A stretch of DNA of 64,000 bases from Haplodiscus bocki. Lineage: Eukaryota. How positions within the stretch are numbered: the stretch's first letter is position 1; every line of letters starts with the position of its first letter. This document shows positions 13,370 through 37,920 of the stretch, in pieces. Location of the stretch: the NCBI GenBank assembly GCA_965655095.1, contig OZ296648.1, forward strand, positions 131,688,001 through 131,752,000, read 5' to 3'. A model generated the notes under the pieces. The model was not told the DNA's origin and made no database searches. It saw nothing but the letters and a program-made list of their open reading frames with translations. A program made the position numbers and the translations under genes.

Positions 13370-13615
13370 GTGGATGAAGAAGTGGGAAGGGTGGTGGGGG
13401 GTGGGGTGGATGAAGAATCGGGGGAGGAGGTGGTGGATGAAGAATCGGGGGAGGGGGTGCTGGTTGAAGAAGTGGTGGGGGGTGGTGGTTGAAGAAGTGG
13501 TGGTTGCAGAAGTGTGTGTGTGTGGTAAGGGGGTCGAAGAAGTGGGGTGGGGGATTGGTCAAAGAGGTGGGGTGGGGGTGGTCAAAGAAGTGGGGGGTCG
13601 TCAAAAAAAGTGGGG
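13370..13615 (+). repeat. G-rich low-complexity junction (degenerate GAAGAAGTGG/GGTGGGG units), G-quadruplex-prone
   Basis: Abrupt switch from satellite to a tract with many G3-G6 runs and almost no C. Confidence 0.85.
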
Positions 13616-14596
13616 ATTCTGCAAAAATAATGAAAAGAATAATTGCCATAAATAAATTTAGGAAAAATTATGTCAAATATTTATGGGACAAGATGCGGAA
13701 TTATTTCTGACTTCATCCATAATTTTCATTACAGCCGTTCGATAACAAGAATATAATTGTCCTATGGAGTGTTTTGTGTGTAACGGATTGGGGGGGGGGG
13801 GGGATCGATGACTAACATTTGCTGTCTTTTTAAAAATTGCTATTAACCGCTAATACATCTTTGCGCTTAACGCTGAAAAACTCAATACTTTCACCTGTTT
13901 TATTACATTCACCCGCTTATTGAAATTACTTGAAGGCGATAAAGTAAAAGTTTGTTCAAAATTTATTGTTGCTGCTTTAGTAAATACTTTTTCTCATCTG
14001 TATGTATTGTTTTAATTTCCTTATCTGCATCTGATTCATATTTAACTGAAAGTCTGCAGCTGCAGATAATTGCATCAAGAAAATTGAGGAAAGACAAAAA
14101 CAGACAACAACCCACCCAAATGTAAGTTGTGCTCAATTTATAAATTTATCTGTTTTAACCAGAAGTAAAAACAATAATTAAAGCCATTTCTTTTCAAAAC
14201 TAAAAATAATTTTTCTTCTCTAATTTCATAGAGATTTCCCATTCACAACACCAAGAAATAGCAACTTTAAAATTCCCAACAATCACCCCGCGCATTTCGA
14301 GAGCTATTCAAAATTAAAACTACGAAAACAGGCGATTGTTAAATGTGACAGCTCCAAACTCAGGTGAAAGACATGTTCGGGAAGGCAAAGTCTAACTTGG
14401 AGTTTAATTTTGATCATTGTTGACAATCTTTTTCTCTTCGCTATGGTATGACAGCATTTGTCAGAATTATTTTTCGGAAATTCAAAATTATTTCTGCGCG
14501 TGCAACTATATTAATAAATTTGGGAACGTTAACTTTAAGGGCAATTATTTACTGTCACATGTTCCATAATATTAAATTATTTTTGCGGAATCCCCG
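13611..14596. mobile_element. Non-autonomous TIR DNA transposon (MITE, hAT-like), copy A, older and diverged
   Basis: Ends GGGATTCTGCAAAAATAAT (13613) and ATTATTTTTGCGGAATCCC (14594) are inverted repeats. 13613-13730 and 14450-14594 match the reverse complement of the two ends of copy B. No clear TSD. Confidence 0.75.
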
Positions 14597-15237: not shown

Positions 15238-15310
15238 CATCCCCGGCGGGATTCGAACCCGCGACCTCTGGATTAGAAGTCCAGCGCGCTATCCACTGCG
15301 CTACGGGGAC
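15238..15310 (-). tRNA. trnR-TCT: tRNA-Arg(TCT), intronless, 73 nt
   Basis: Minus strand reads GTCCCCGTAGCGCAGTGGATAGCGCGCTGGACTTCTAATCCAGAGGTCGCGGGTTCGAATCCCGCCGGGGATG: complete cloverleaf, anticodon loop CTTCTAA, A and B boxes, TTTT Pol III terminator 3 nt downstream. Confidence 0.96.
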
Positions 15311-15999
15311 TTTCAAAACCACGTTTCAATCTTTAACTTAATCAAATCACTAAGTTACATTACTATTTTATCAAACCATTCAGCGCGTGATTTACTGAAC
15401 CACACAAGTATTGAACTATCGGAATACATGCACACTAATAAGAACTGCTGAAAGAACTGAAATACAAAAACAAATCGAAAACGCCAAAATTATGGCACAT
15501 AATCCTTCACATCTCAACGAAACTCATGACCTCAAACTTAAGAAAATGTCCCCCACTAATTACCACGGAAAAGAGCTCATCTACAAGAAATTCATTAATT
15601 CGAAGCAGGGATTCCGCAAAAATAATTTAATATTATGGAACGTCCGACAATAGATAATTAACCCTAAAATCAACGTTCCCTAAATTATTGCAAAACAAGG
15701 CACTTGAAGAAATAATTCCGGAATTTTTGAAAATTATTTCAAACAAATGTTCTTAAACCCATCGGTCTTTCCTAAGAATGGAACAGCATGTCATCGATAA
15801 AGTAAATAGAATTTAGGTTTTACTCGACTGAAATGTCTTACCAAAGATTTTGGTACTTTCAGAATACCCTCCAAAGTACGATTAAGTTCTGTTTATTACA
15901 GCAGGTTGAGTTTGCATTTCTAAAAATTATGGTTGAAAGATGAAAAATAATTCCATATCTTGTTCCATAAAAATTTGCCATGAAATTTTTCCTCCAATA

Positions 16000-16794
16000 T
16001 GTAGCAGTTGAATTTTCTTGCCTAAATTTTACTTTCATAAACTGAACTAAATTTGTAGCTACTGAGTCAAGTACCCTCGAGTGCTGTAAGCCCCTTTATT
16101 AAACTCTCTTGTTTCACTAAATTAATGATTCAAGTACCTTCGAGCACTTCTTATCTATTCTCAAATGTCATGCAAAATTCCTTTCATACGCTCGCTCACC
16201 ATAATACTTAGCCTACAAGTGTGATATAAACCCTTTCGTAACCGTACACTCATTTATATGCAGTTATAATATTTTCCTAGCGTATTTTCCAAATTTAATA
16301 CTATTAGTCAAACCAAAACTGACCTGACCTCCGCCCTCGAAGAAGAACCCTCGACGATCGCGCAAAGAAATTCTGACAAAAATCCCAATCATACGAACCC
16401 AGAACACGAACAAGCAAACAGACGGTCCAACTACAACTCACCTTCAACAGAAGAGAAAGAAAAGTAGCTCAAGAGCCCCTCTTTGCGAAATTTCAACCCA
16501 AAAGACAAAGACACTTCCCTGAACAAGAACTCTCATTATAATGTAAGTTTATACAAAAACCCTCTGTAATTTAAAACCTTTAACTTTCTTTCTTTTCTTT
16601 TCTAATTTAAATTCTTTCTAAAAAGCCAAAAACAATTTTTGTATTCACTTGAGATATCCCGCTAGCAACCACCAAACCAAAAACACCTAAATAGTAATTT
16701 TAGAAATTACTGAAGTACCATTTCCAATAACAGTCGTCCTCCGCATCCAAAATCATTTTCTAGCGAACTGTTTTAAAAGCATACGACTGTTACA
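16000..16794 (+). repeat. 5' LTR (795 bp)
   Basis: Matches 27823-28627 except for one substitution and a 10-bp indel (compared by eye); TATAAA at 16225 and Inr-like TCATTT at 16250. Confidence 0.97.
16541..16548 (+). promoter_or_regulatory. Major splice donor AT|GTAAGT, supplying the AT of the env and ORF4 start codons
   Basis: Consensus GTAAGT at 16543; joining to AG|G at 23976/23977 or 26736/26737 creates an in-frame ATG in both cases. Confidence 0.8.
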
Positions 16795-16797
16795 AAA

Positions 16798-16815
16798 TGG
16801 TGACAGGAGTGGGAT
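16798..16815 (+). other. Primer binding site, tRNA-Leu
   Basis: TGGTGACAGGAGTGGGAT lies 3 nt after the LTR; 17/18 match to the complement of the metazoan tRNA-Leu(CAG) 3' end as recalled (TGGTGTCAGGAGTGGGAT). Confidence 0.85.
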
Positions 16816-17910
16816 ACCTCAAGTGAAAGGTCGTTTAAAAACGATCCGCGTGCGATTTTCGAAAATTGGAAAAGTGATTTAGTTTTTCCCCTTTCTTAGC
16901 TTTGGCCCAAGACCTTCGCCCACTGTTTTTCTTGTCACTGAATTTCAGTGCCCGCCAGCTAAGATCCTCTTCACCGGACTGTGTCCGAGCCTAGTTTTCC
17001 TAAGATCCTCTTCACCGGACTTTGTCCGAGCCTAGTTTCCCCAGCTTCGTGCTGTGTATTCCGCGTTATGCGAGTTCTGGCAAGACCCACTAAGATGGCC
17101 CTTAAGTTTTAAGGATCTCACGTGAGTACTAGCTAAAACTTCAATTTTTCTTGAAATTTTTCGTACATTTTTGCTTTTGTAGCCCCTTTTCCTTTAATGT
17201 CCGTTCAGTTTTGTGCACATACGTCACCCCATGCCCGAGTTTTTTCTGTGAGTCCACCTTCACCCCCACCAGCGTACCGACCCGTGCAAAACCGTTTCCC
17301 AATCATCAGTACAACCTGCCTTTTCAACATTTTTCTCGCACTGACTGTCATTACGCTACTCCTACTGATAGCCGCCATAACCAGATTAGCTTTCGAAGTT
17401 CACGAAACCAGAAAACAGTGTTCCCGTGCAGTAAACGCTAAATTTTCAACAAAACAAATTTTTGAGTAGAGTTTGCAATTCCGATGTATCTTTTTGGTTT
17501 TCCTGTGTCAACCACCACGAACACGTTACCTAAAGAAATTTTTATTCCCTGTTATTTCTGTCAAGTCCGTACACATCAAATCCCAATCGCTTTTCGGCCC
17601 GAGTCCTCTTTTACACCGCATCAATTGAGTATTCACTATCGACTTGAAGGAATTCATTACCAACACAGTGAGACGCACCCACTAATTCAATTTTTCCCTA
17701 ACACGAACCATCCCAACCACATTAAGTCCACAAGTAGTTTCTTCTTCCCAATCCTAACTCAAATCTGGAGAATTTATATTGAATTCTTGTCGCACTACTT
17801 TACTGACCCCCTTGCGATCGTGTACCCAGGTAGTGGTCCCTCTCAACTTGATGACCTCAGCCGCTAATAATTCGAAGTAGTTTGATTTTCTTTGAGTTTT
17901 TTTAATCACT

Positions 17911-19129
17911 ATGTCGACAACCGTCGCTACGGCAACGACCACCACCGCCACCATTACAAGTGCAGGAGGAACCACTTCTAGCACGCCTACCTCCTCCACT
18001 GCTACCACCAGTGCAACAAGTACCCCAGTTTCGTCGACCGCAACTAGCTCAACGCCTACTGCAACCCTAGGCACTGGTGCTGCCGCACCTGGCACGCCGT
18101 TCGCGACACCTTTTGGCCCCGGAGGTGCCCCTTCTGTAACTCCTTTGCCCTCATGCCTTATGCCAGAAAGTTTCACCGGATCTGGTGATTTTGAGGACTA
18201 CCTACAGCAATTTAATACTGCTGCCTTACTTTCTGGTTGGTTTTCACTAACCCAAGACAACAGGCGACATTATTTCGCCCTTCGGCTGCGAGGAAATGCC
18301 CTGCACTTCTACACAACGCTTTCTGCAGCCCAACAAACTGATTTCAATTTGTTAGTTGATGCCTTCCGGCAGAACTATACAACGAATGTCGACATACTGA
18401 AAGCAAGATTGAAAGCTGCCCGACAGCAACCCAATCAAGATATTTCTGCCTTTTTGTGTGACATTAGAACACTCGCGCGACGCGCCTATCGCGCTTTTCC
18501 TCACTTAGTAGAACAAATTGTCCTGACTAGTTTCATCGAAGGCCTGAGCGATGCAACGCTTCGATGGGAACTTAGAAAGTCCAAACCAGCTACAGCTGAT
18601 GATGCTCTAGCCCTGGCCATGGAATTGAATTCTTTCCTGGAAATTGAGAAAGGAGCCCCATCAACAAGCAAAATGGCCGAGACCAGCGTAAACGCGATCT
18701 CCCGTGAAACTCCTGAGCCACCCACCAAAGAGTGGATGGACGAGCTTGTTCGAACGCTAACGGACGGAATCAAGAACTCCATGCCTAAGCCGAGCCAAGA
18801 AGGATCCCGACAGCGTAATAGCACGCCAAATCGCCACCAACCTTCTCGGTCAAACAGTACCGACTCACAAGGAACCCGAACGGTCCGTTTTCAAAATATT
18901 TCGAACGAAAGAAGAAATAAGTGGCCGAGACAATAATTGGCGCGGACCCAACCGGCAAAATACGAAGTCTAACCGATCGAATGACAACAGAAACAGCTCC
19001 AAAGGACCTTGCAAACATTGTAAACGCGAAAATCATGCCTCAAACGAATGCAAAGCGTGTTTCAAGTGTGGAAAGATTGGACACTTCCGCAATGAGTGTC
19101 GAAGTAACACTCCCAACAATTTAAACTAA
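17911..19129 (+). CDS. gag: Gag (Thr-rich N-terminus, capsid, two CCHC zinc knuckles); frameshifted near 18900-18935 in this copy
   Basis: ORF 17911-18936 has a retrotransposon capsid-like region (PESFTGSGDFEDYLQQF...RQQPNQDISAF). The zinc knuckles CKHCKRENHASNEC and CFKCGKIGHFRNEC (from 19010) are in the +1 frame, which ends at TAA 19127-19129. Confidence 0.9.
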
Positions 19130-19171
19130 GAAAGTCTACGCCAGAGGGTCAACGCGCAGACAAAGACACTC
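19120..19171 (+). promoter_or_regulatory. -1 programmed ribosomal frameshift signal (U UUA AAC plus putative pseudoknot)
   Basis: T TTA AAC immediately precedes the gag stop, in the correct phase to enter the protease frame. After a 7-nt spacer: stem GTCTACGC/GCGCAGAC and loop-tail pairing GAGGGTC/GACACTC. Confidence 0.8.
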
Positions 19172-19935
19172 CCCCAGGCCCACAAATTGAAACATTGAAT
19201 TCTGTTGTTGATCACCGAAGTGAGTTCATTCAAATAACAATTTTTGATCGCATAATCGAAGCGATATGCGACAGTGGAGCAAGTGTGTCATGCCTTAGTA
19301 GTGAAATCTATGATTCCCTCAGATTGAAACATTCTTTGAAATTGCAACCTGCCCTGAGACAACTGAAAGCTGCAAATCAATTGCCCATTGAGACTCGAGG
19401 CGTTGTACGCCTCCCAATAAGTTTAGGCGGAAGAAAATTTGAACATAATTTTCATGTTTTGGCTAAGTCGGAGGCCGATTGCCTTATAGGACTCGATTTT
19501 TTGGAAGATCACCAATGTGATCCACTTTTTTCGCAGAAGAAATTGCGAGTGAATGATGACACTTTTGTCCCATTAAATCACAAAGTTTATACCATACAAA
19601 CTGATCAAGTCTTCCGAGTTGCTTCCACTGACAACGTTTGGATCCCAGCAGGTCATTCGATGATCATACCAGCCCATATCCCAGGATGGAAGCGCCCACC
19701 AATAGAGTTGGCCGCCGTATTCGAGCCGCATGAACGGTTCAAGGTAGACAAAGAGGTCAGTGCTGACCATGTCTTGTTTAATTTCTCCGAGGAAACAATC
19801 CCGGTGATGGTAACAAACACTGGGGATGAAGCGATCATGATACATAAAGACACCACATTGGGACAATCTGAACTAGTCGCAACGGATAAAATTCAAAACA
19901 TTAGTACATTGAAAAGCCGCAAAAGCCAAAACTAA
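19120..19935 (+). CDS. pro: Aspartic protease plus degenerate dUTPase-like segment (N-terminal part of pol)
   Basis: AICDSGASVSCL catalytic motif and CLIGLDFL; frame is open from the slippery site; separated from RT by an apparent 1-nt frameshift at ~19920-19935. Confidence 0.9.
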   Translation, partial: FKLRKSTPEGQRADKDTPPGPQIETLNSVVDHRSEFIQITIFDRIIEAICDSGASVSCLSSEIYDSLRLKHSLKLQPALRQLKAANQLPIETRGVVRLPISLGGRKFEHNFHVLAKSEADCLIGLDFLEDHQCDPLFSQKKLRVNDDTFVPLNHKVYTIQTDQVFRVASTDNVWIPAGHSMIIPAHIPGWKRPPIELAAVFEPHERFKVDKEVSADHVLFNFSEETIPVMVTNTGDEAIMIHKDTTLGQSELVATDKIQNISTLKSRKSQN

Positions 19936-19961
19936 AGGACAAAAAGGATGCCAAGTACGAT

Positions 19962-22900
19962 TTGAAACTTGTCAAAAACTCTATCGATACTGGTATTTCT
20001 CAGAAAGCAAAAGCAAAGTTCTATAAACTAATCAATGAGTTTTCTGATGTGATCTCAAAAAATGAATGGGATATTGGCCAATGCGATGTAGCCGCCCACA
20101 AGATTCAAGTAGAACCCGGATCGCGACCAATTAAACTCCCCAACAGAAGAATGCCCTTACATTACAAGGACGATCTACAGGAAAAGATCGATGCTTTCCT
20201 AGAAAAGAAGTTAATCACGCCTTGTCATAGCCCATATAGTGCACCGGCCATGCTCGTCCCGAAGAAAAACGGCAAACTGCGTTTAGTAATAGACTACCGG
20301 CAGTTGAATAAACAAACAATCAAGTCCTGTTGGCCCATTCCATCCATAGAAGAAATCTTTGACACCTTAGAAGGAAGTGAATTCTTTACCACGATTGATA
20401 TGTCGTGGGGTTTCTACCAGCTCCCAATGGCTGAAGAAAGTCAACACTTTACCGCTTTTAGCACGCCTTTCGGATCTTTCAAATGGCTCCGAATGCCTAT
20501 GGGACTGACCGGTAGCCCGAATACTTTTCAAAGCTTGATGGAACAGGTTCTAGTTGGCCTAACTTGGAAGACAACAGTCCCTTATTTCGATGATTGTATC
20601 ATCTTCTCTTCTATGGCTGAAGAACACATTGAAAGATTAAGAGAAGTTCTTGAACGGTTTCGCCTTGCGAATCTAAAAATAAACCCAACAAAATGTGAAT
20701 TTTTCCGGACTCGCGTCCCCTTTCTTGGCCATATCATCAGCAAGAATGGTCTAGAGGCGGACCCGGACAAAATTGCTGCCGTTAAAAAGTTTCCCATCCC
20801 TACAAATCCGACCGAAGTAAAATCTTTTCTTGGTTTATGTTCTTACTACCGTCGTTATGTGCAAAATTTTGCTGAAATAGCCCGACCACTCCACAAAGAA
20901 AGTGAAGCAACTACAAATTTAAAGTGGACACCCGAAGCCCAAGATGCTTTTGAAACTCTGAAATCTCGATTAACGACTACGCCCATTTTGGCTTTTCCTA
21001 TCATGAAAGAACCTTTCATCCTGTACACCGACGCTAGCCTAACGGCTATGGGCGCTGTCTTGTCGCAAGTACAAGATGGACAGGAGCGTGCCATCTGCTA
21101 CGCCTCAAAAGCTTTCTCGAAAGCCCAAACTAGATATTCTGCGACTAAAAGAGAATTGTTAGCCGTCGTTAACTTCACACGACACTTCAAACATTACTTG
21201 CTTGGTCATAAATTCACAATTATCACTGATCATCGCGCCCTACAATGGCTCCACAACTTCAAGGACCCAGATGCACTAACCGCCCGCTGGCTTGAAAAAC
21301 TTGCCGCTTTCAACTACGAGGTAGTGCATAGGCCCGGAAAATCGATTGGCCATGCCGATGGTCTATCCCGAACACCACTTAGAGCATTTAATGCAATTGC
21401 AACTGAAGACCCAGCTGCAGATGCGCCTGAAGAAGACCAAGAATGGCCCAACCGCACGAATGAAAGTCCACCTGACCCCAAACATTTCCAATATTCGGAG
21501 ATCCAAGGCGATGTACTGCAATCAACTGACTCCATTGCTCACTGTATTTCAGCTGACTTCAAGCTAGGAGCAGGAATCGCTCGAAGCATTAAGCGACGCT
21601 TTCCAACGCAGTACCCCGACAAAGAAGCCATCGCTAGCGAAGTCATTTGGCCGCAATGGATCCCCGAATCGCAAAGTTTCGTCTATCATTTAATAACAAA
21701 AGTGCGTTATTTCCATAAACCAACGTACAAGGCATTGAGATTATCTCTAGAGGCAATGAAAAACCACGCTGAAAGCAAAAAAGTTTTGCGTATTAGCATG
21801 CCCCAGATAGGTTGTGGCCTCGATAAACTTGATTGGAATAAAGTTCGAACATTGATTAAAGAAGTTTTCCGACCTACCAACATAGAGATCATCGTGTTTC
21901 TAAAGCCCTTAAAAGAACCGCCACGCGCAAGTCAAAACCCAGTTAACTCCTCTGATAATGCAGTTGCAGCAGAAACGCCTAATATTTCCGAAACGTTGAC
22001 TTCCCTCGCATCGGCACAGAGAGCCGACCCACAATTGAAGAATCTTTTTCAATGGGTCATACGTGGTACACCACCAAGTACCCACGAGTTACAAGGACTG
22101 CCGCGAGCAACATGGCAATTGGTCAACGAATTCCGCAGTCTGAAGATCATCAATGACGTTCTATGTAGAGAATTCATCCACAAAGAACGCCCATTGTACT
22201 ATCATCAACTGATCCCTGCGTCATTAGTACCCCAAGTCCTGAACTCAATCCACTCATCGACCACTGGAGGTCACCTAGGAATAATCAAAACTGTAGAAAA
22301 AGTACGTGAACGTTTCTACTGGCCTGGCTTCCAGGAGGATGTGAAATTATTCATCAATCGTTGTGAACAATGTCAGAAAAGAGCCAACCCACCCAAGACC
22401 CATCGACATTCTTTGGTCGAATGGACCCCAAGCTATCCGTTTCATCATATCGGCATTGATTTTATGAGTCCCTTACCATTGTCGAACGGTAACCAACACA
22501 TTCTTTTGATTGGCGATCAATTTTCGAAGTGGTACGAAGCGATTCCACTTCCCGACCAAACTGCTTCTACCACAGCTACGGCTCTTCTTGAAAATTGGAT
22601 CTGTAGATTTGGATGCCCCCACAGTATCCATAGCGATCAAGGTCGTAACTTCGAATCAGAACTTTTCAAAAGTCTGAATCAAGCCTTGCAAGTTGACAAG
22701 ACCCGAACAACAGCCTTCCGGCCCCAGTCGAACGCGGTTGTGGAACGGATGAACCGTACGTTGCAATCAATGCTTGCCAAATGCGTCAACGATGAACAAA
22801 GTAACTGGTCACAACAGTTATCGTATGTCATGATGGCATATCGTACCTCGGTTCACGAATCCACAGGGTACACTCCACACCTTCTTGTCTATGGACAGGA

Positions 22901-24035
22901 AGTCTGCCTTCCTATTGATTTCATGTATCCAAATCCGAGTGATCAACCCCCAGCCGACCTCCATGAATTTGTGTCAGCCCGACAAGTCAGATTTCAAAAG
23001 GCGTACGATTCGGCTCGTACAGCCCTGAATTTCAATCAGCGACGCAGAAACGCCCTTTACAATCGAAAGGTCCATGGACCCACCTATCAAGTCAATCAAA
23101 AGGTTCTACTACACAATCCCGTTGTCCCAGTTGGAAAGTCACCAAAGTTCTTTAGCCCATGGAAAGGTCCATATGTCATTTTACAATGCCTCAATGATGT
23201 GACCCACCGCATTCAAGAAATTGCAAATCAAAAAGAACTTGTTGTTCATTATGACCGACTGAAGTTATTCCATGAACCCCCACCGACCTCGAATGTACCA
23301 ACGCGTGATAAAAGAAATCCGAAAAACATATCTCAACCAAAACCTCAGCAACAAGAACCATCAATCCCCGAGTACGACCACGATCAATGCACCTGGCATT
23401 ATCCGTACCATACCGTCCCTTCAGCAACCACTTGTTCTCGTGGCGTTGCTTGCACAACCCCGCCTGCTACGCCTGCACCAGCAACTACTCCAGTTGGTTC
23501 CCCCAAACCTGTACTACCGAGTCCCTCTTCTTCCTATTCTGGAGCTACAGCACCCTATAGTCATGGCTCTCCCAGCACACCGAAGACAACCACTTCTCTC
23601 CGTTCAGGCACACCTACACCTGAACCTCAAACATCTGCAGAATCACCAGCTCACTCCCGAAGCCTTCCTAGCAGCCCTTCTACGCCGTCTTCTGTGAGAT
23701 CAAAACCATGGTTCCGCGAAGTCATTGACAATGCTTCTCGTACTCTTCAATTTGGTGATGCACCAACTCACGCCCAACCTCAACATAACCTCCGCAGTAG
23801 TACAAAAGAACAACGCAAAGCCCAACCATTATGGAAAGCAAAACTACCTCCTGACCTAAGTGATTTCACTTCCCCCGCCAGCTCGAAGAAGAAAAGAAAA
23901 GTTCGCCCACTTCATAACTTTCACTCCTTTCAGAACGCTAATTTCACACCTTTTACTCCTCATATCGTTCTTTTAGGCTTCCTTTCCTACTTTCACTCGT
24001 CCTTCTCAATGGCCCGCCTCTTTGTTACACTGTGA
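19962..24035 (+). CDS. pol: Pol: reverse transcriptase, RNase H, macrodomain, integrase (HHCC, DDE, GPY/F), Ser/Pro/Thr-rich tail
   Basis: RT LRLVIDYRQLN, MPMGL, YFDD (20583); RH LYTDAS, RELLAV, TDHRAL, HADGLSR; IN H..GHLG..CEQC, GIDF, HSDQGRNF, VERMN, WKGPY. Confidence 0.97.
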   Translation: MKLVKNSIDTGISQKAKAKFYKLINEFSDVISKNEWDIGQCDVAAHKIQVEPGSRPIKLPNRRMPLHYKDDLQEKIDAFLEKKLITPCHSPYSAPAMLVPKKNGKLRLVIDYRQLNKQTIKSCWPIPSIEEIFDTLEGSEFFTTIDMSWGFYQLPMAEESQHFTAFSTPFGSFKWLRMPMGLTGSPNTFQSLMEQVLVGLTWKTTVPYFDDCIIFSSMAEEHIERLREVLERFRLANLKINPTKCEFFRTRVPFLGHIISKNGLEADPDKIAAVKKFPIPTNPTEVKSFLGLCSYYRRYVQNFAEIARPLHKESEATTNLKWTPEAQDAFETLKSRLTTTPILAFPIMKEPFILYTDASLTAMGAVLSQVQDGQERAICYASKAFSKAQTRYSATKRELLAVVNFTRHFKHYLLGHKFTIITDHRALQWLHNFKDPDALTARWLEKLAAFNYEVVHRPGKSIGHADGLSRTPLRAFNAIATEDPAADAPEEDQEWPNRTNESPPDPKHFQYSEIQGDVLQSTDSIAHCISADFKLGAGIARSIKRRFPTQYPDKEAIASEVIWPQWIPESQSFVYHLITKVRYFHKPTYKALRLSLEAMKNHAESKKVLRISMPQIGCGLDKLDWNKVRTLIKEVFRPTNIEIIVFLKPLKEPPRASQNPVNSSDNAVAAETPNISETLTSLASAQRADPQLKNLFQWVIRGTPPSTHELQGLPRATWQLVNEFRSLKIINDVLCREFIHKERPLYYHQLIPASLVPQVLNSIHSSTTGGHLGIIKTVEKVRERFYWPGFQEDVKLFINRCEQCQKRANPPKTHRHSLVEWTPSYPFHHIGIDFMSPLPLSNGNQHILLIGDQFSKWYEAIPLPDQTASTTATALLENWICRFGCPHSIHSDQGRNFESELFKSLNQALQVDKTRTTAFRPQSNAVVERMNRTLQSMLAKCVNDEQSNWSQQLSYVMMAYRTSVHESTGYTPHLLVYGQEVCLPIDFMYPNPSDQPPADLHEFVSARQVRFQKAYDSARTALNFNQRRRNALYNRKVHGPTYQVNQKVLLHNPVVPVGKSPKFFSPWKGPYVILQCLNDVTHRIQEIANQKELVVHYDRLKLFHEPPPTSNVPTRDKRNPKNISQPKPQQQEPSIPEYDHDQCTWHYPYHTVPSATTCSRGVACTTPPATPAPATTPVGSPKPVLPSPSSSYSGATAPYSHGSPSTPKTTTSLRSGTPTPEPQTSAESPAHSRSLPSSPSTPSSVRSKPWFREVIDNASRTLQFGDAPTHAQPQHNLRSSTKEQRKAQPLWKAKLPPDLSDFTSPASSKKKRKVRPLHNFHSFQNANFTPFTPHIVLLGFLSYFHSSFSMARLFVTL
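21486..21905 (+). other. TARG1/OARD1 (Poa1p-like) macrodomain embedded in Pol
   Basis: GDVLQSTDSIAHCISADFKLGAGIA ... YHLITK ... HKPTYKALRLSLEAMK ... ISMPQIGCGLDKLDW closely follows the OARD1/TARG1 signature, including the catalytic Lys (LITK) and Asp (GCGLD). Confidence 0.92.
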
Positions 24036-26302
24036 CCCACTACTCGACTCATCTCAACGATCAGCCAGAAGTTCCAGTCTTCAAGAAAGGCGCTGCCTTC
24101 CTCTTCAAATACCAAGCAGTCACTTCCGAAAGTGAGAGCAAAGTTCGAGTGTTCTCCCCGTTCCCGAAAATCCCGGATGTCAATCTTACTGGAGCTGAAG
24201 AATTGTTGAGCCTAGCGAAAATACGAATAACCGGAATTGGTGGCATGTATGTCCAAAAAGTTTGTGAATTCCAAGAAATCAACAAAACATATGGCCTATT
24301 AATGACACAGTTGAAGGATCGCGTCGAATTGATCAAGCTTGAAGTGAAACAAGCAACAGATGAGCAAGGAAAGCTCGCAGACGTAATGAAGTCTTTTCTC
24401 CCGAAACAGTATCAGAGGAACGTGGCGACGCTTCCACGTTCGAAACGATTTATTGGCGCAGTAGCTGCTCTTGCAGCAGGTGCCGGATTGATCCTGGGAG
24501 ACCCGTTGAAAGAAGCTGCATGTACAGCCGTCTCGATTTTTAACTTGTGCGATGACACAAGCAGTTTGTCCCAAGACATGGACCAGATCCTGAAAACGCA
24601 GGAAGAAATAATAGCGACCTTGCAACGTGTCCAGTCAGCCAATGATCAAAACTTCTTCCTACTGGGTAATGAAGTCCGAGAAACGCAACAAAATGTTAAG
24701 AACCTTCGTGATGCTGTGAATGATCACCTACAGGTTCTCCATGATCGAATAAATGGAATTCAAGGAGATTTAATTCAACATAAAGAATGTCAACGAAGAC
24801 AAGCTCAACATTCCCTCTTCCTCCAAGAGATTAGATATACCATATCTCATTTGGGTACCTTGTATACTCACATAAAGTCTTACCAAGCTGCGTTCTACGC
24901 CTACAAGATTAACTTGTTCTCGACGATCTCGTCCCTTGCTAGTGGCCAAATAACCCCCCAGTTGCTCCTACCCCCAGAAATCGCTGACATTGTACGAACA
25001 CTGTCAGAAGAAGAGAGTTATCGTGGTACAAAACTTACCCCCGCCATACAGCCTGGCTTCGAAGCTGTCTATTATGAGATTCAACTCGTTTTAGAAGTCA
25101 CGTTAATTCCGCGCGGTATATCAGTTGTACTTGGTGTACCAATGAACTCCAAGTCTTCCACTTTCAACGTGTACCATGCTACCCCGCTGTACCAACCAAA
25201 CGGTGACAACAAGACAGCCTCCTTGTTCCAGCTCGCAAAGCCTTTCTTGGCTGTGGCTACTGACGACTCTCGATACGCCGAATTGGATAGTTCCACCTTA
25301 CAACAATGTTCAGGTAACAATCGGATCAGACTTTGTCGCAAAGGTTTCTCAACCACAACTGATGACACCCTCCTATGCCTGAGTTCTTTGATGTTCGATT
25401 ATGCCATCCCAGCATTGCGTAACTGCCTCGCCAATTCTGTGCTTTTACCTGACGCGCCACAAGCTTTTTATTTGGCCGAAGGATTGTATCATGTCATCTC
25501 CCGTGAACCACTTCTTCACATGAAAAACGCCAGTGATATACATGGTGTCAGTGTTTCAATGATCCCATGTCAAGCCTGCATTTTGAGACCCAGTTGCCAC
25601 AGTACCCTAACCCTGAACCAAGGCGATCTAGTTCTTGAACCGGATATGGACTACTGCTCGACGAGCACAGAGCCCTTCTTTGCCACGATCGAACTGATCC
25701 CATCATTAGAACAAGTCTTCAAACATGTCCCACACTCCAATCATGTCTTTCATGCCTATTCGTTGGGCGAAGCACGTCATTCTGTCCTCAGCAGCGTTCG
25801 TATGGAATTAGCAGAACTCCCGGACGTGCGACGCATGTCAGTTGATTCAATCGACCAACTAGCACACCCGATTGCGCAGTATTACTCATCAATTTCTCCG
25901 GCAACATCACAAGCCCTCGAGTCATATCTCCCCTTTCGCACTGCCGTCTTGTTCTCGACTGTTTCGATTACCCTTTCTTCATTGACTTTCACTATCAGTT
26001 TTACCTTGTTCCGCCGTCAATGGAAACGACTTTTTCTTCATCCACACAAGTTCTTCAAAAGTACAAATGGACGACTCTTGCATGTCACGGACAGTCATGA
26101 AATTCCAGATACAGCCATTGATGACGCTTCTGTTTTCATCCAGCTCAGTTTGGACGAATTCAACGCATTAAAAACACTTGCCAGTGAAACCCTGAGACAC
26201 CCACCCCATAATAACTCATATACCACATGCAATGCCCCTCATATTCCTACCCGTGTCTACCCAGACATCACAGCCCCTCATTATTCCGAGTCTACAACAT
26301 AA
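23977..26302 (+). CDS. env: Env, class I F-type fusion glycoprotein (~775 aa when spliced to the LTR leader)
   Basis: Spliced N-terminus MLPFLLSLVLLNGPPLCYT (signal peptide); furin site RSKR (24437-24448) followed by fusion peptide FIGAVAALAAGAGLILG; heptad repeats; Cys-rich region; N-glycosylation sequons; TM helix 25943-26011 then RRQWKR. Confidence 0.92.
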
Positions 26303-26736
26303 TCTAACTGAACTCCTTAACATCTTGTTGTTGTAACATATCATACATGTCATATTTAAAATCAAAACAATTTGCACTTCTGTACCCCTTTTGTACGTCT
26401 CCGTACTTATCTTGCCTAGATTCACATCATGGCCCAGCTTTTGCACATTTCCGTGCCTGCTCTCTTGTACGTTCCCGTACCTGCCCAGCTTCTGTTGGCC
26501 CGTTTGCACGTGTCCGTGCCCACTTCTTGCTCAGACTTTGATCTGACCCTTGACAAATTGAGACCAATCATGTCTCCCCTGTCCTATGATTTCAGCGTTG
26601 ACAGTATACGTATCCGTATACACGTACCTCAAAAAAACTCAACATTAAAGACTCGTTTCTGTTTTTCTCCCTTCCCCACCCTCTTTTTCTTTAATCCATA
26701 AATTGTGAAATGTTCTTATCATTTTTTTTGTTTCAG

Positions 26737-27733
26737 GTTTCCTACTAAGCGTCCATCTGGCACCCCTCTCTACACCAGCAGTGGAAATGTGTCCATCATC
26801 TCCCCAGGCGACGTTGTCCAGATATTGGATGAACGAGAATATCGAGTACTACGGATCAACCCCCATTCGTCAACGGTGGTCCTACGTCGAGTCGATGCCA
26901 GTACCAATCAACGTAGCTTCATGCGCCCCTCAACTTCCATTTGTACCCTACCAGCCACTACCCGTGATATCGCCGTCGAAGTTAACGAGCCAACTGAAAA
27001 TTGCCTCTGTGAAATCCCGCCCCCTCCCGTCTTGCCAGATGTTGCCGACATTTCAATTAGTTGCAATCTTGACGTTGATGAGTATGTTAACAGTACACAC
27101 CCGGAATTCGACTCTGTTGCTAAGTTGCAACAAGGATTCGAAGAAGCTAAATTGGCCGCTAATGCAGCTTTCAAGGAACTTTGCACCGAGGTCCTGAAAG
27201 TGACAGAACTAAAAGAAAAGATAAATTCCCTGCAGCAACGCATAACAACACTCACAGAGGAGAACGAAGGTCTTTTAAAACGAACAATGGATCTAACAGA
27301 GGACGTGTCTGCCCTATCGGCCATTGCAACAAATAAACGCTACGTACCCGTAATGCAGAGGATCATTTGGCACCATGTGCTTCAACAGCCCCTTTTGCAA
27401 CTCCCCTTAACAATTGGTTTCAATTATGCACCCCCTAACTTCCTCTTCAACCTTCTAGGGTGCCCCCAGTCGTCGACACCCGAACTGATTAGCGAGAACG
27501 TAAAATGCTTATTACAGATTCTCCATCCCGACAAGAACCCACAGGCTCCCCCTACAGTCACCCAGTATATACCTTTGATATCTTTTGCAAAAACTATTTT
27601 GCTGGACAAAAGCCTTTCCCCCGTATACCGCTGCTGTGGTCTGGATGGTATTGCCCGCCGTCAACACAAACTTCGCACTTGTCGCCGTTGTGATCCCTTC
27701 TTGCAAACCCTCAATGACCTAATGGATCTATAG
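26737..27733 (+). CDS. ORF4 accessory protein (~332 aa when spliced): coiled coil, DnaJ-like J-domain, Cys-rich tail
   Basis: Intact ~1-kb ORF between env and the PPT; acceptor TTTTTTTGTTTCAG|G; NFLFNLLGCPQSSTPELISENVKCLLQILHPDKNP...ISFAKTILLDKSLSPVYRCCG fits the J-domain pattern (HPD at 27524-27532). Confidence 0.85.
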
Positions 27734-27809
27734 ATATTCTTTTATAATAATTTTATACATTGTAATAATTATTGTTCGCCTTTTTTTATTTGCGGGACGC
27801 AAACCCAAT

Positions 27810-27822
27810 AAAAGGAGAGTGG
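27810..27822 (+). other. Polypurine tract
   Basis: AAAAGGAGAGTGG immediately 5' of the 3' LTR. Confidence 0.9.
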
Positions 27823-28627
27823 TGTAGCAGTTGAATTTTCTTGCCTAAATTTTACTTTCATAAACTGAACTAAATTTGTAGCTACTGAGTCAAGTACCCT
27901 CGAGTACCCTCGAGTGCTGTAAGCCCCTTTATTAAACTCTCTTGTTTCACTAAATTAATGATTCAAGTACCTTCGAGCACTTCTTATCTATTCTCAAATG
28001 TCATGCAAAATTCCTTTCATACGCTCGCTCACCATAATACTTAGCCTACAAGTGTGATATAAACCCTTTCGTAACCGTACACTCATTTATATGCAGTTAA
28101 AATATTTTCCTAGCGTATTTTCCAAATTTAATACTATTAGTCAAACCAAAACTGACCTGACCTCCGCCCTCGAAGAAGAACCCTCGACGATCGCGCAAAG
28201 AAATTCTGACAAAAATCCCAATCATACGAACCCAGAACACGAACAAGCAAACAGACGGTCCAACTACAACTCACCTTCAACAGAAGAGAAAGAAAAGTAG
28301 CTCAAGAGCCCCTCTTTGCGAAATTTCAACCCAAAAGACAAAGACACTTCCCTGAACAAGAACTCTCATTATAATGTAAGTTTATACAAAAACCCTCTGT
28401 AATTTAAAACCTTTAACTTTCTTTCTTTTCTTTTCTAATTTAAATTCTTTCTAAAAAGCCAAAAACAATTTTTGTATTCACTTGAGATATCCCGCTAGCA
28501 ACCACCAAACCAAAAACACCTAAATAGTAATTTTAGAAATTACTGAAGTACCATTTCCAATAACAGTCGTCCTCCGCATCCAAAATCATTTTCTAGCGAA
28601 CTGTTTTAAAAGCATACGACTGTTACA
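27823..28627 (+). repeat. 3' LTR (805 bp)
   Basis: Direct repeat of 16000-16794 with an extra GTACCCTCGA. Confidence 0.97.
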
Positions 28628-29410
28628 AATAAATAATTTTTGGAGAAAATGGGCAAAATTAAATTATTTATGGCAATTATTTATTTTGCAATTATTCTTG
28701 CAGAATCCCTGACTCGAAGGCAACAAGTGGTCTCGAAAATCGGCAATGTGAAGCAAATTATTCTTCCGCTCTAACAAATTTAAACAGCAAAATTTAAAAG
28801 AAACGAAAAAGATCCGTCCTCCAACTCAATGGACTCCAAATTTTGAATCGAACCATCTTCCCAACGGCAAATGAAGTGGGGAAACACAGCCCCTCCATGT
28901 ACCTCGACAAATTTACTCAGCGATTTCGAGGCCTCCCAATTTTGTGCAGAAATGAAAACATAGAAACGATAAAGATGCCTGCCGGCTAAATAGTTTCCAC
29001 TGTTAATCGCCTTTTTGCCAACACTGAAAAGGGATTAGTACACAAGTGAATTCCCATCGCGTCGAATATTCGAAGCATCGAAAATTACAGACTGTTCAAA
29101 GCGTCAAAAATTCCTGAGCAGCCAGTGGTCTTTAGTCGATTTTTGACGGTATGAATAGTCACCGTGGATGGCAGGACAAAATACCCAAGCCCAAAATACC
29201 CGAAGGCCCAAAAAAACCCAAGATTGAAATAGCCATACTAATTAAATAAATAACAGCGTCGTGAACTAAAAAATTTATAACGCCTCTAATTACTTTAGTT
29301 TATGGATGTTTTGAAATATTTGTGCAGACAAAATAAAATACCACAAGTCAAAATATTCACAGAAAAACAACTGCGAAGTTCAAAAAGTTGGGTATACACG
29401 TGGAGTACCC

Positions 29411-33624: not shown

Positions 33625-34836
33625 TTACTCGACCATCAAGTTTCGCCAAGCAAAATCATAAAAACCTGCAATATTATCAACAGGTGCATCCTCAACACCA
33701 TTGGACGGATCTTTTGCATCATCACGATTAACGATTACGTCACTGATTGGGTGTTTGTTGGAGGTTTTAGCAAGCAGAGACTCCAAATTGCTCAACTGTG
33801 AAAGAATATTACGTAATGCTTGAGGATTTTGTTCAGTTTCTCTGGTTTTCATCATCTCAAAACATTCACAAATGACTCTTTTGGCATCTTCCGATGCAAA
33901 AGCACAGCCTTGGCAAGAAATAACAGCCATTTTGATAATTTCAATCTCTCCACTTTTGAGTGCACGTCGGAAAACTTCCTTCTGTTCACTTTCCTTCATG
34001 TTACGTACAATTTCGGGTCCATAACATTTCATTATATCCAAGAATATGGCCGAATTTTCACAGATAAAATCAGCTGTGAGTACTTGATACAAAAAGTTTG
34101 CGAATCCGGTCAATTTTCCAAGATGTAGCATCGCTTCTTTGCAACCAACTTCAGACAAAATTGAGCAAAACTCTTTTGGAAATCTGAAAATATTTTTCAA
34201 TAGTATGCCAAGCAAATATTTTTTTTCAGGTATTGATTTTGGTTTCTGTTTTCCTAGAGCTGCAAGAAAAGCGTCATGTGATATTTTCCTCGTCAACCAA
34301 TCCGTGATTAATTTCTGCAATTTCAGTTCCGTTTGATTTTGCAGCTCAAAAATGATCAACCACTGGGGGAACCAATACCTGTCTTTGATGAACTCTAAAC
34401 AAGTTTCAGCGCCCAGAGCCATTAAATTGGACGTCGGAAGTTGTGCATGAGCCGAAGAATGTCTTAAAGAAGTAATCCAAGCTGGAATTCCGATGGATTC
34501 ACAAACCACTCTCATGGCTTTCTTCTCATACGAGGTCTGCTCAACGTCTGAAAGAAGACTGACGAAGCGAACGAGAGCTGATGACAAACAGAGTCGAGTT
34601 CGGCAGGTATCTCCTTCTGTTTGGAAACATAAAACAGCCTGAACGAGATCAGCTGTGACGTTGATGCTGGTACTCAAGGAGCATGTACCCATTGTTCGCA
34701 CCTTCCATATCTGGACCATGTCTACCCCCAACTGTCGCTTTTCGGTATCCTCGTGATATAAAAGGTCAAACACGTACTTCCATTCTGCATCACAGGACCA
34801 CGGAACAACTTTGTGTTGGGAAAAATCAGCTCTCAT
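33625..34836 (-). CDS. LAS1L: Ribosome biogenesis HEPN endoribonuclease Las1 / LAS1L homolog (~403 aa, intronless CDS)
   Basis: VVPW...EW..V...LY, WKVR, TADLV, SALVRFV, IPAWITSLRHSSAH (HEPN RHxxxH), YW..Q; first ATG at 34836, preceded by acceptor TTTCTTTTCAG at 34864. Confidence 0.9.
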   Translation of the reverse strand: MRADFSQHKVVPWSCDAEWKYVFDLLYHEDTEKRQLGVDMVQIWKVRTMGTCSLSTSINVTADLVQAVLCFQTEGDTCRTRLCLSSALVRFVSLLSDVEQTSYEKKAMRVVCESIGIPAWITSLRHSSAHAQLPTSNLMALGAETCLEFIKDRYWFPQWLIIFELQNQTELKLQKLITDWLTRKISHDAFLAALGKQKPKSIPEKKYLLGILLKNIFRFPKEFCSILSEVGCKEAMLHLGKLTGFANFLYQVLTADFICENSAIFLDIMKCYGPEIVRNMKESEQKEVFRRALKSGEIEIIKMAVISCQGCAFASEDAKRVICECFEMMKTRETEQNPQALRNILSQLSNLESLLAKTSNKHPISDVIVNRDDAKDPSNGVEDAPVDNIAGFYDFAWRNLMVE

Positions 34837-35389
34837 GTCGAAGTACTCAAAACAATACAGAACCTGAAAAGAAAGCTGAGTCAAAAGCGGAAAAAATGGA
34901 ATATGTGGAATCAGATGAAGTTTTTCAAGAAATGGCGGTAAAGCTTTGAAGGAAATCGACTAGAAAATGATTAAAATCGATTTCAAGAAAGAAACAAGTA
35001 GATGAAGCTCAAACAAAATCTATTAAATAAGTCCATCACCTTGCTTATATGAAAATAGGCCCCTGGCGAAGCTCGAATATCGAAGCCTATGAACCAATAA
35101 AATAAACCAATTTTTGAGGTTAGCGAAAAAGAAAAGGCTACCAAAAGTGTCATAGTCAGACAAGTGCTACGTTTTTGAACAGAGACACCAGATTAGCTAT
35201 TTCCACCGACATTGAAATCTTCAAGATCCCAGTTCTGCAGAAAGTTGGCAACATGTTATAAACAAGCCAGCCTATTGGCGTGATTTTTCCGTTTTTTTTT
35301 CGAGGGGCTTGTAATGACAGATTTGGTGCTTCGAACATCAACTTCGTTCAAAACTGTTATATATGGTTATAAAGTTTTCTGGCTCAAGC

Positions 35390-35480
35390 AGTAACCGCAA
35401 GACATAGTGGGTAGTGCACAAGGCAGAGGTTCCAAAGCCACAAGTTGCGCATTCGAACCCTGGTAAAGGCTAATATTTTA
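35390..35480 (+). pseudogene. Degenerate tRNA-derived (SINE-head-like) sequence
   Basis: A-box-like TAGTGGGTAGTGCAC and B-box-like ATTCGAACCC at tRNA-like spacing, followed by a T run; no intact cloverleaf. Confidence 0.3.
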
Positions 35481-37181
35481 TACCGCAAACTAAACCAAAA
35501 GTCTACCTAACTCCGAAAAAAAGGACCTTCAGACACAAATGATTTCGTAATACACCCTGACAAAATCTAACGAATTGACAGGTGGCGGATTCGAATCCAA
35601 TAAAAGCTATGGTTTCTTACGTTTTAGACCAAAAAGTACACCAGAATACAATTTTTTCCAGCATCAAAATCAACTCCGTCCCACAAGTATTTAGGAGCGA
35701 TACGGCCGGTGCCGATTTAAGCCGTTCCCAGCGTGTATTTGTATTGCTCTGTGCTGGAACAATTGCTAAAAAGACGACTTGAAAAGCAAAAGAACAAAAA
35801 ATCCACGAAAATCGCAAACTTTTTTGTCCAACTCTAAAGAACCAAAAGTACCATTTTAGACAATTCCTCAAAAATGTTGACAATTTGTGTAGATATAGGC
35901 AATATGCATTAGCACAAATGTCAATTGACAGACAGAACAGCAAAAAAAATCGAAATATTGCCAAATTAGACAATTTCGTGGACTGAAAAACAACAAAAAT
36001 GACGTTTTTCTGGTTTAAAAAAAACTCAGTTTTCCACTAAAACATACTGCCTACTTTCTTTTGTTTCAGTTTTAAATGTATTTGTAGCTGAAAAATGGCA
36101 TTTTAGACAGAAGGGCACAAAAACCTCAAAAGTCGGGAAATTAGCTACTTACCTACTTTATAGCAACCAAAGAAACCTCTATATTGAAAATTTTTGCACT
36201 GTTCTGCTGTACAATGCTAAAAGGTGTATTCGAATCGTATTGGTTGGGATTAGCAGCTAGAGAGCTGCAATAACGAACAAAAGTGCAAAATTTTAGTCAC
36301 AAACAACAATAGTATCTATTTTTGGCCTTCCAAAAAGCAAGAACGCCACTTTTCAAGCACCTAAAGTGCCACTTCGCACAAAGTTTTGAAAACACTTTGA
36401 AAATTTATCAACTTGTATTGAAATAAGCTGGATTCTCGATAACAAAGTGCGTTTGAGGGGCAGAAAACTTTTGGAAAAATCACAAAATTAACTCGTTCAC
36501 ACTAAAAAAACTAAAAATCCTCTAAAAGTTAGTAATTTGAGAAAAGGAGTTGCATTTTACTGTGTTTGTGTTTCTGTGTCTTCCTAGTTTAGTAGTGTGA
36601 CATTCGATATGGAAAATCGGGAAAAATGGTCATATTTCCTTGTTTTACCTTCAAAACTGAAAATGCCATTTTTTCAAAATTTTCATGCTTTCGAAAAATT
36701 CGTCACAATTTAACATAGGATAGATTTATTACGAATGCAAGGCTAAAAATATAATTTCCACGGCAGAAAGCGAATTTCCAATTTTTCTGGCTACATTTGC
36801 ACACTAAAACACGGAAAAAATTGTACACTAACGTTTATACATGAACGTTTGTACAAAAACGCGAAGGGAAAACAGCGATAATTCGGGCAAAGATAGAAAA
36901 ATTGGTAAAATGATCAGCGTAGCTTACCTCCAGCGGCAGTACGTGGTACGTAACGGCAAGCTGATGGTAACTACCGTGTGACGTACCTCCAAGCAGACCT
37001 ATTGTTTTCAAAATACCAAAAAATTGTTTCAAAATTGATTTTTAACAATTGCAATAGATGAAAAATTTAATTATCCTAAATTGAGAAAAGAAATATGCAA
37101 TATTGCTCCTAGTATGGAAACGGTATCTTTGAAAAATATGAAAAATTGAACTTTGAAAGTGTTGAAAAATAAGCATCAATT

Positions 37182-37580
37182 TTAATTTTGACCACCCGAA
37201 TAATGTTCATCATAAAGCTGCTTGGCTGAAAGTGGTTCACTAGTTTCTTTCAAACTATCATTGTCAACAGAAAGACTCATGTATGGTCTCAAATTGAAAT
37301 TGTTTAGATCAGGAATCACAAGTTTTGGGCTCATTTCGGGTACGTGAACAAACTTCACATTTCCTTTTTCCGTTTGGACACGGTATCCTAGAGCTGGCTC
37401 TCCGTAGTCTATGACATGTGATATACGCTTGTCAGTACTGTGAGTCCAAGGAATGGCAGGATCCCTGAAATCGAATTCGTACTTCCACTTGGTACCCCTG
37501 GGATCTTTTTTCAAGTACTTCAGATACCGCGTTCGGGTTAAATATCCAGCACTTAAAGGCATTTTTCTCTGAAATCTCAT
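37182..37580 (-). CDS. MRPL41: Mitochondrial ribosomal protein mL41 (MRP-L27 family)
   Basis: C-terminal half KFVHVPEMSPKLVIPDLNNFNLRPYMS ... EPLSAKQLYDEHY matches the mL41 motif (F..V.EM.P..VVPDL..F.L.PYVS); basic N-terminus; 132 aa. Confidence 0.75.
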   Translation of the reverse strand: MRFQRKMPLSAGYLTRTRYLKYLKKDPRGTKWKYEFDFRDPAIPWTHSTDKRISHVIDYGEPALGYRVQTEKGNVKFVHVPEMSPKLVIPDLNNFNLRPYMSLSVDNDSLKETSEPLSAKQLYDEHYSGGQN

Positions 37581-37920
37581 TTGATTAAAATCAAGAACTC
37601 ATTTTGCAACAACGTGGCAAAATAAAAAACCTCTATATTGAAATCTTTTTACTATTCTGCTGTAAAACAAAAAGTACAAACTGATCAAGTGAATTTTTTT
37701 CAAAAAATAAATAAATCAAAAAGCTTCGGCATATAAATTTTATCTTTTAGCATTGATGACCTTCTTGACCCCGCCGTTGACAAGTATTGTCAGCGCAAGA
37801 ATATAGCACGTTTTCAGAGCAAGCTTATATGGGAAACCGAACGACTTGTTTTGAATTTCTCGGGACTCGTCACTGACGATAAAAGATAACCGATTATCAC
37901 AAGTCCCGGAACAAACCAAT

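Follow-up and report, generated by a model that had tools for sequence, protein, structure and literature searches.

Does an envelope gene that has stayed open beside broken gag and pro-pol genes mark a fusogen taken up by its host, or does it simply belong to a mobile element of recent arrival? The question is raised by a 64,000-nucleotide stretch of the genome of Haplodiscus bocki, a probable acoel (assembly GCA_965655095.1, contig OZ296648.1, positions 131,688,001 to 131,752,000 of the forward strand), referred to here as the window and numbered from its first letter. The open frame is the envelope (env) gene of a long terminal repeat (LTR) retrotransposon of the Ty3/gypsy group (Metaviridae), errantivirus type, which spans positions 16000-28627, about 12.6 kb (Table 1). 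Its genes, assigned with Pfam, follow the order gag with a CCHC knuckle, protease, reverse transcriptase (RT), RNase H, macrodomain, integrase, env and an additional open reading frame (ORF), ORF4; the matches in pol are RT_RNaseH, Integrase_H2C2, rve and Integrase_p58_C. Taken as a whole, the locus is probably best explained as a young, defective copy of an errantivirus-type element whose env start codon is split between the LTR and the gene, and whose ORF4 encodes a co-chaperone. The envelope itself is a member of an already known group and is not a candidate for co-option.

The env product is predicted to fold as an F-type class I fusogen

The env frame is open, as the original prediction had stated; it runs over 786 codons (23942-26302) and is not a chance ORF: it has 103 homologs at E ≤ 1e-3, and the ratio of nonsynonymous to synonymous substitution rates (dN/dS) is 0.15-0.42 against all six sibling copies compared. 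Most of the anticipated layout was also recovered. A furin-type site and hydrophobic peptide, RSKR/FIGAVAALAAGAGLILG, are followed by a long heptad repeat (residues 195-320) in which 3.5 is the strongest hydrophobic period among seven tested and which forms a single long helix in the model. The cysteine cluster lies where it had been placed, and the predicted transmembrane helix precedes a tail of 96 residues, close to the 95 or so expected. The protein contains 14 cysteines, five N-glycosylation sequons and a Cys-x8-Cys loop after the fusion peptide. Its tail carries a YPDI motif that we take to resemble an endocytosis or late-domain signal. The proposed signal peptide stands in part: a hydrophobic stretch is present at 23978-24030, but the first ATG of the genomic frame is at residue 102. 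The start assigned to env, position 23977, is the first base past a predicted splice acceptor.

The description of the fusion peptide as paramyxovirus-like was overstated. A hydrophobic peptide does follow the furin site, but env matches neither PF00523 nor PF12259 in Pfam. Nor is the FIGA start characteristic. Among 43 env rows longer than 600 residues, 36 bear R-x-[RK]-R (a few of these pattern matches being upstream sites), and only two of the 36 continue with FIGA, compared to four with AIGL, three with AIGA and three with LVPA. With two of 43 long rows carrying it, FIGA was rejected as a family signature.

Searched singly by sequence against Pfam and the PDB, env returned only coiled-coil noise, and a 36-row env profile gave no significant F match. 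Five of the 36 aligned relatives match Baculo_F (best 3e-8) and one matches Fusion_gly (0.009), and in a second Pfam scan 2 of 16 proteins exceeded the PF12259 cut-off. A deep env profile matches PDB entry 9W4C at 4e-8, a record that names only a "fusion protein" and that we take to be a baculovirus F; the best F0 entry reaches 0.05. Judged by sequence, env is nearer to the baculovirus-F/errantivirus type than to PF00523.

The fold was modeled from a 61-row alignment with a predicted local distance difference test score (pLDDT) of 78.8, with the weak parts of the model confined to the N-terminus and the surroundings of the cleavage site and fusion peptide. All 42 rows shown from a Foldseek search of the PDB are pneumo- or paramyxovirus F proteins (best E 1.8e-6), among them those of respiratory syncytial virus (RSV), human metapneumovirus, Newcastle disease virus (NDV), parainfluenza virus and henipaviruses. 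The predicted viral structures of BFVD match more closely, the best rows being the glycoprotein of a myriapod virus, a protein of an abalone herpesvirus and baculovirus F, with E values of 1e-17 to 1e-14. The top match in VIA-align is RSV F (336 residues aligned, rmsd 6.3) at Z 9.5, a value that is modest when taken alone, as a de novo helical design scores 9.1 against the same model. Two further points weigh against the assignment: the pLDDT falls below 50 at residues 129-180, which include the fusion peptide, and TM-scores to solved F structures are low, 0.2-0.3 by query length. Nevertheless, the model supports an F-type class I fusogen fold. Env would work like a paramyxovirus F, yet it is not a PF00523 member, and at the level of the family it is very likely fusogenic. 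Because of this predicted fold and the purifying selection on the element family, we consider it a fair inference that the family spreads infectiously between cells.

The BFVD matches also include uncharacterized proteins of abalone and ranid herpesviruses (ranks 2, 22 and 27; E 3.5e-17 to 1e-6), a hint that these viruses have class I fusogens.

ORF4 is a probable J-domain protein

ORF4 encodes 332 residues, predicted to comprise an N-terminal KOW/SH3-like barrel, a Cys/Pro linker, a coiled coil, a J-domain and a C-terminal Cys motif. The J-domain fold is matched at Z 9.4 (rmsd 2.6, 74 residues aligned), and all 10 ORF4 rows, drawn from eight families, keep the HPD motif between helices II and III unchanged. 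An ORF4 profile reaches DNAJC5 at E 2e-12, and DnaJ scores above its cut-off in ORF4 of four of the seven other families scanned. The barrel matches Spt5/DSIF KOW domains at Z 7.0-7.2, a score that many coiled-coil rows reach as well, so its likeness to KOW is a lead only. ORF4 lies downstream of env in eight of nine families and has a dN/dS of 0.08-0.18 in the four measurable pairs, indicating purifying selection. What speaks against a working J-protein is that ORF4 of the window copy scores slightly below the DnaJ cut-off (25.6 vs 27.8). ORF4 is also not essential, since a family for which 60 or more env matches were counted has none. Weighing both sides, we regard ORF4 as a likely working J-protein. 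Whether its target is the element's own particle seems to us evenly balanced.

A protein search found 36 homologs of ORF4, all of them unnamed ENA records; ESM Atlas returned only low-score unnamed matches, and the viral contigs searched contained no relative. In the literature searched, which includes PMC6338049 in part and has most subscription journals and Repbase outside its coverage, we found no J-domain gene in an LTR retroelement.

For the role of ORF4 we rank recruitment of Hsp70 to the element particle first. Second, and less probable though still to be reckoned with, ORF4 may be a counter-defence or host-manipulating protein, acting as an Hsp70 decoy or interfering with small-RNA loading, rather than a helper in assembly or uncoating. 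Such a protein would fit its dispensability, the OARD1-like macrodomain that pol carries as well, and its variability among copies of one family. In F1, the family of the window copy, the synonymous divergence of ORF4 runs from 0.18 to saturation compared to 0.04-0.07 for env, suggesting that ORF4 alleles have been swapped by recombination. However, the low dN/dS of the four measurable pairs gives no sign of diversifying selection, and the proposal names no target for ORF4. Recruitment of Hsp70 to the particle remains our preferred role.

Two side observations concern the 3' part of these elements. At L021-L030 near-identical env genes are paired with distinct alleles of ORF4 and of the U3 part of the LTR (63-97% amino acid identity), so that the 3' ends are mosaic. 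In families F5 and F8 a fifth ORF lies past ORF4 (L073 4903-5541, L074 4922-5536, L082 4609-5397). ORF5 has no Pfam or NCBIfam match in either family and no ESM Atlas match in F5; its motifs resemble those of SGNH/GDSL hydrolases.

The window copy is young and carries three private frameshifts

The two LTRs differ by one substitution and one indel, a 10-bp duplication. The insertion appears to be very young, because the LTRs are almost identical and the target-site duplication is intact. Continuous gag-pol-env frames are absent from this copy. TTTAAAC followed by a stop is a standard programmed -1 frameshift signal; the heptamer is found where gag ends, both in the window and at 14 of 15 other loci with the CCHC frame shown, in three families. 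We therefore rejected the overlap of gag and pol as a lesion, since it is a conserved slippery site. Folding of the RNA behind this site gave no significant structure (z +0.94, with pseudoknots outside the model). Three genuine breaks are left, one in gag and two in pro-pol, and to this extent the initial picture of an undisrupted env beside frameshifted gag and pro-pol was correct. In a comparison with 19 sibling copies, one of which lacks coverage, the breaks are private to the window copy: none of the siblings that cover the sites (10 of 10 and 18 of 18) has them.

Are the breaks real? The element might be intact and the three frameshifts assembly errors, which their small size, their restriction to this copy and the near-identity of the LTR pair would allow. 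The LTRs themselves differ by an indel, however, so real indels have occurred since insertion, and the majority of sibling copies are broken too. Public sequencing runs yield contigs of pooled copies and cannot settle the matter. We judge assembly error unlikely, and the window copy is probably a recent, defective insertion from an errantivirus-type family that is actively spreading.

The primer-binding site is complementary to tRNA-Leu(CAA), the product of an intron-containing gene found elsewhere in the host genome (locus L069). ARAGORN in intron mode names this tRNA-Leu(caa), with the intron mis-spanned; without intron mode the primer tRNA is missed. The L069 genes form a long tandem array with a 424-bp period at about 161.09-161.13 Mb of G000:C1.

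Env and ORF4 are predicted to share a start codon split by the LTR

How can env be translated when its frame lacks an early ATG? Joining the AT that ends a predicted LTR exon to the G at the env acceptor would create an ATG directly before the hydrophobic stretch, and the same AT would serve the ORF4 acceptor, the best-scoring AG in its window. The env acceptor is kept in 19 of 19 sibling copies. In all eight LTRs scored, one per family, an AT stands directly before a donor-like site, giving AT/GT(A/T)AG (AT frequency 0.07-0.10); the sites lie 140-262 nt from the end of the LTR and have a purine at -3 in seven cases. The LTRs of these families can be aligned only in short patches, and the donor is shared nonetheless. 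A ninth family, F4, outside this scoring, has ATG-TC/GTGAGT in the same phase. Inspection by eye finds an in-frame AG/G at 14 of 17 acceptors; the remaining three are each followed by an ATG, at distances of 0, 1 and 15 nt. A crude blind scoring, from which ORF4 of F9 was dropped after a failed anchor, picked the in-frame AG/G in 8 of 16 windows against a 14% background (P=3.5e-4). Of the metagenome relatives, L091 has an acceptor and then an ATG for env, and L089 has an in-frame AG/G for ORF4; L088 bears an ORF4 homolog with an indistinct start. Among the 15 of 71 joints listed for the contigs of four public runs there is no GT-AG joint, a result that is uninformative on expression.

Several observations weigh against a shared split start codon. 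The blind scoring missed the proposed acceptor in the other half of the windows and ranked the env acceptor of the window copy second (9.2 vs 10.2), and its P value is overstated since the families are related. In five of nine families (F2, F3, F5, F8 and F9) env also offers a workable in-frame ATG close to where it begins; strictly, only the env genes of F1 and F4 depend on the splice. Between two and five upstream ATGs lie in each LTR, and the junctions are deduced from sequence conservation alone. Translation of Env and ORF4 might instead bypass the LTR donor, relying on a different donor, a non-AUG start or internal ATGs; the leader and two LTRs do contain further donor-like sites. We consider this improbable. 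ORF4 homology starts exactly at the acceptor, and its conserved barrel precedes the first Met in six of eight families, so that internal ATGs would leave ORF4 without its N-terminal barrel. AT is an unusual exon end, yet it stands before the donor in every LTR scored, and loss of the +1 G coincides with a nearby ATG in three of three cases. That env and ORF4 share an LTR-borne split start codon is, by contrast, highly probable.

Env is an ordinary element envelope rather than a co-opted gene

A 287-residue env query gave at least 136 scored matches in the host genome. At least nine env-bearing families are present, the extra families having surfaced with further queries. Nine were examined: F1 (the window), F2 (L031-35), F3 (L036-40), F4 (L070-72), F5 (L073-75), F6 (L076-78), F7 (L079-81), F8 (L082-84) and F9 (L085-87), with the more distant env family P0205 set aside. 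Lesions were tallied over 48 F1 and 29 F2 env rows and 66 pro-pol rows, leaving out weaker or partial rows. In the 33 paired F1 copies env is open in 11, pro-pol in five and both in three; both are open in 21 of 28 paired F2 copies. In F1 the rates of 0.0014 lesions per codon in env and 0.0012 in pro-pol are equal, so env is not spared.

This answers the question posed by the open frame. The original prediction had named env a candidate for host co-option, but an unbroken 2.3-kb env beside three frameshifts in 6 kb is expected from length alone with P ~0.31. The marks of a syncytin-type gene are single or low copy number, an old insertion with decayed LTRs and gag-pol, and an env kept beyond the rest of the element; none of them was found here. 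Co-option, completed or under way, whether as a fusogen of the syncytin kind or as a factor that blocks receptors, would account for the open env next to a damaged gag and pol and for its dN/dS below 1, but we reject it as very improbable, because env is multicopy, sits in a very young insertion and decays as fast as pol, and because the low dN/dS mirrors a replicating lineage, in which ORF4 behaves alike. Env is almost certainly the ordinary envelope of its element.

Features of the element and its surroundings

Table 1. Positions of the element's features in the window (a slash marks the predicted splice or cleavage point)
Feature	Positions	Strand	Remarks
Left target-site duplication, AATA	15996..15999	+	Right copy 28628-28631
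5' LTR	16000..16794	+	795 bp, TG...CA ends; paired with 3' LTR
Predicted splice donor AT/GTAAGT in LTR	16541..16548	+	Exon ends 16542; purine at -3; AT of split start codon
Primer-binding site	16798..16815	+	18 nt complementary to tRNA-Leu(CAA) 3' end plus CCA
gag	17911..19129	+	Retrotrans_gag and CCHC knuckle; frameshifted near 18,900 in window copy
pro-pol	19108..24035	+	Protease, RT, RNase H, macrodomain, integrase; frameshifted near 19,900 and near 23,900
Slippery heptamer TTTAAAC, then stop	19120..19129	+	Candidate -1 gag-pol frameshift site
OARD1/TARG1-like macrodomain	21470..21900	+	Between RNase H and integrase; E 4e-31 to C6orf130/OARD1 structures
Predicted env acceptor	23938..23977	+	CTAAT branch-like motif, pyrimidine tract, TAG/G; exon starts 23977 in frame
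env, predicted F-type class I fusogen	23977..26302	+	Open frame, fold model, selection
Furin-type site RSKR and hydrophobic fusion peptide	24437..24499	+	Sequence
Long heptad-repeat helix (heptad repeat 1 equivalent)	24557..24934	+	Periodicity and model
Predicted transmembrane helix	25943..26011	+	Hydrophobic stretch, approximate ends; hydropathy only
Cytoplasmic tail	26012..26299	+	96 aa; conserved terminal YP-x-hydrophobic motif (YPDI, 26258-26269)
Predicted ORF4 acceptor	26716..26737	+	T-tract, CAG/G; exon starts 26737 in frame
ORF4, probable J-domain protein	26737..27733	+	332 aa; HPD at 27524-27532
Polypurine tract	27808..27822	+	Directly 5' of 3' LTR
3' LTR	27823..28627	+	805 bp; paired with 5' LTR

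Outside the element, positions 1-13500 hold about 25 tandem units of 533 bp that are 60-100% alike and show higher-order patterning. A tRNA-Arg(TCT) gene lies about 700 bp 5' of the element (15238-15310, minus strand), in a region bounded by 82-nt inverted arms at 14513-14594 and 15608-15689. On the other side, a tight trio of seemingly intronless host genes on the minus strand (33625-39033) comprises a LAS1-like gene, a mitochondrial ribosomal L27/L41-like gene and a SAGA Tad1-like gene; the LAS1-like gene has a single named homolog, in Convolutriloba macropyga (34%), which, as the evidence of one gene, points to an acoel host at the level of the phylum. Farther along are a non-LTR retrotransposon with a PHD finger, endonuclease and RT in a single open frame of 1070 residues (50579-53791, minus strand) and short tandem repeats of 54-60 bp (61800-61983).

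Proposed mechanism and implications

In the mechanism we propose, transcription would start in the 5' LTR. Unspliced RNA would be translated into Gag and, by -1 frameshifting, Gag-Pol. In spliced RNAs the first exon would end on AT at the LTR donor, and the G of either acceptor would complete the ATG of Env or of ORF4. Since the donor is upstream of the primer-binding site, spliced RNAs could not be primed for reverse transcription, and a donor in this place would bar their copying. Env would enter the secretory pathway, be cut at RSKR and refold like the F proteins of RSV and NDV, fusing particle and cell membranes and carrying the element from cell to cell, probably into germline or stem cells. 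ORF4 would act as a cytosolic co-chaperone, most likely bringing host Hsp70 to the element ribonucleoprotein or capsid, with the J-domain engaging Hsp70, the coiled coil serving oligomerization and the KOW-like barrel contacting RNA or Gag.

The features that appear to be new in this element are an LTR-borne split start codon for two genes, a J-domain ORF, a macrodomain in pol and a probable new host phylum. We lean slightly towards a broader view, in which acoels carry a radiation of "complex" Ty3/gypsy elements that splice one LTR split start codon to either an F-type env or an Hsp70 co-chaperone, the latter being the first accessory gene with a J-domain to be reported from an LTR retroelement. 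If this is true, any LTR, a solo LTR included, would be a portable promoter with half a start codon and could give host exons new open frames. The conserved J-domain gene suggests that the elements steer host Hsp70 themselves, and it may offer a handle on particle assembly and uncoating.

Comparison with known systems

Errantiviruses with an F-type env have already been described across Metazoa (Chary and Hayashi, eLife 2026, PMC13524379), and the fusogen reported here extends a group known from papers of 2017 and 2026 by one member and probably by a new host phylum. As far as that paper is covered, the H. bocki element shares with its errantiviruses the gag-pol-env order, a Ty3/gypsy pol, a signal peptide, a furin site and fusion peptide, an RSV-F-like fold and multicopy young insertions, as well as tRNA-Leu priming, which is found in some clades. 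The window env itself is an ORF after pol with a signal-like stretch and a transmembrane helix (both from hydropathy), the furin site and fusion peptide, and a predicted F-like fold. An example from a xenacoelomorph is relevant to the claim that F-type env accompanied Ty3/gypsy pol before the bilaterian split. There are also differences. The main text of PMC13524379, whose figures and sequence repository are outside our coverage, does not mention splicing, a macrodomain, DnaJ or an acoel and, in the sections covered, describes no fourth ORF, whereas the H. bocki element has ORF4. Acoel and xenacoelomorph names are absent from its seven text supplements, though the figures and repository may hold related elements, and a peptide-motif search of the supplements, in which long cells are only partly covered, found nothing. 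Ancient errantiviruses have a "mini" domain in the pol bridge (PMC13524379, in the portion covered); the bridge of the H. bocki element holds a macrodomain. For a macrodomain in gypsy pol and for env elements of acoels we found no precedent in the literature searched, with the coverage stated above; macrodomain ORFs do occur in endogenous retroviruses (ERVs) of fish, according to the accessible part of PMC4977317.

Splicing of AT to G has precedents in insects, which we cite from partial texts. The env ATG of Drosophila gypsy is formed in this way (PMC2585583), springer-subclade insect ERVs likewise splice AT/AU to G (bioRxiv 2023.08.03.551782), and the Springer donor lies 43 nt past the 5' LTR (PMC13097621). 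In these accounts the donor is outside the LTR, in the gag region for gypsy, and serves env only, while in H. bocki it is predicted in the LTR, before the primer-binding site, and seemingly serves two ORFs. A split start codon common to Drosophila gypsy and the H. bocki element would be either very old or convergent.

A paramyxovirus-F-like env also occurs in the TelKA, Vesta and Juno LTR elements of bdelloid rotifers (Rodriguez et al. 2017, PMC5408684, covered in part), which share with the H. bocki element an F-like env outside the insects and captured accessory ORFs. The rotifer accessory ORFs are a GDSL esterase and a DEDDy exonuclease that replace env, with no mention of DnaJ in the part covered, whereas the H. 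bocki element has a probable J-protein after env.

With baculovirus F (PF12259) and paramyxo/pneumovirus F (PF00523), env shares the predicted fold and the cleavage-activated layout. It differs from them in an identity of only 8-15% in structural alignments, the lack of a direct Pfam match, the Cys-x8-Cys loop after the fusion peptide and a longer ectodomain. Parallels for the remaining features are found in unrelated virus groups. Polyomavirus T antigens are virus-encoded proteins that recruit Hsp70 through an HPD J-domain, and foamy virus has its major splice donor in the R region of the LTR, upstream of the primer-binding site. The likeness of the H. bocki element to these two groups lies in the HPD J-domain of ORF4 and in the predicted donor placed before the primer-binding site.

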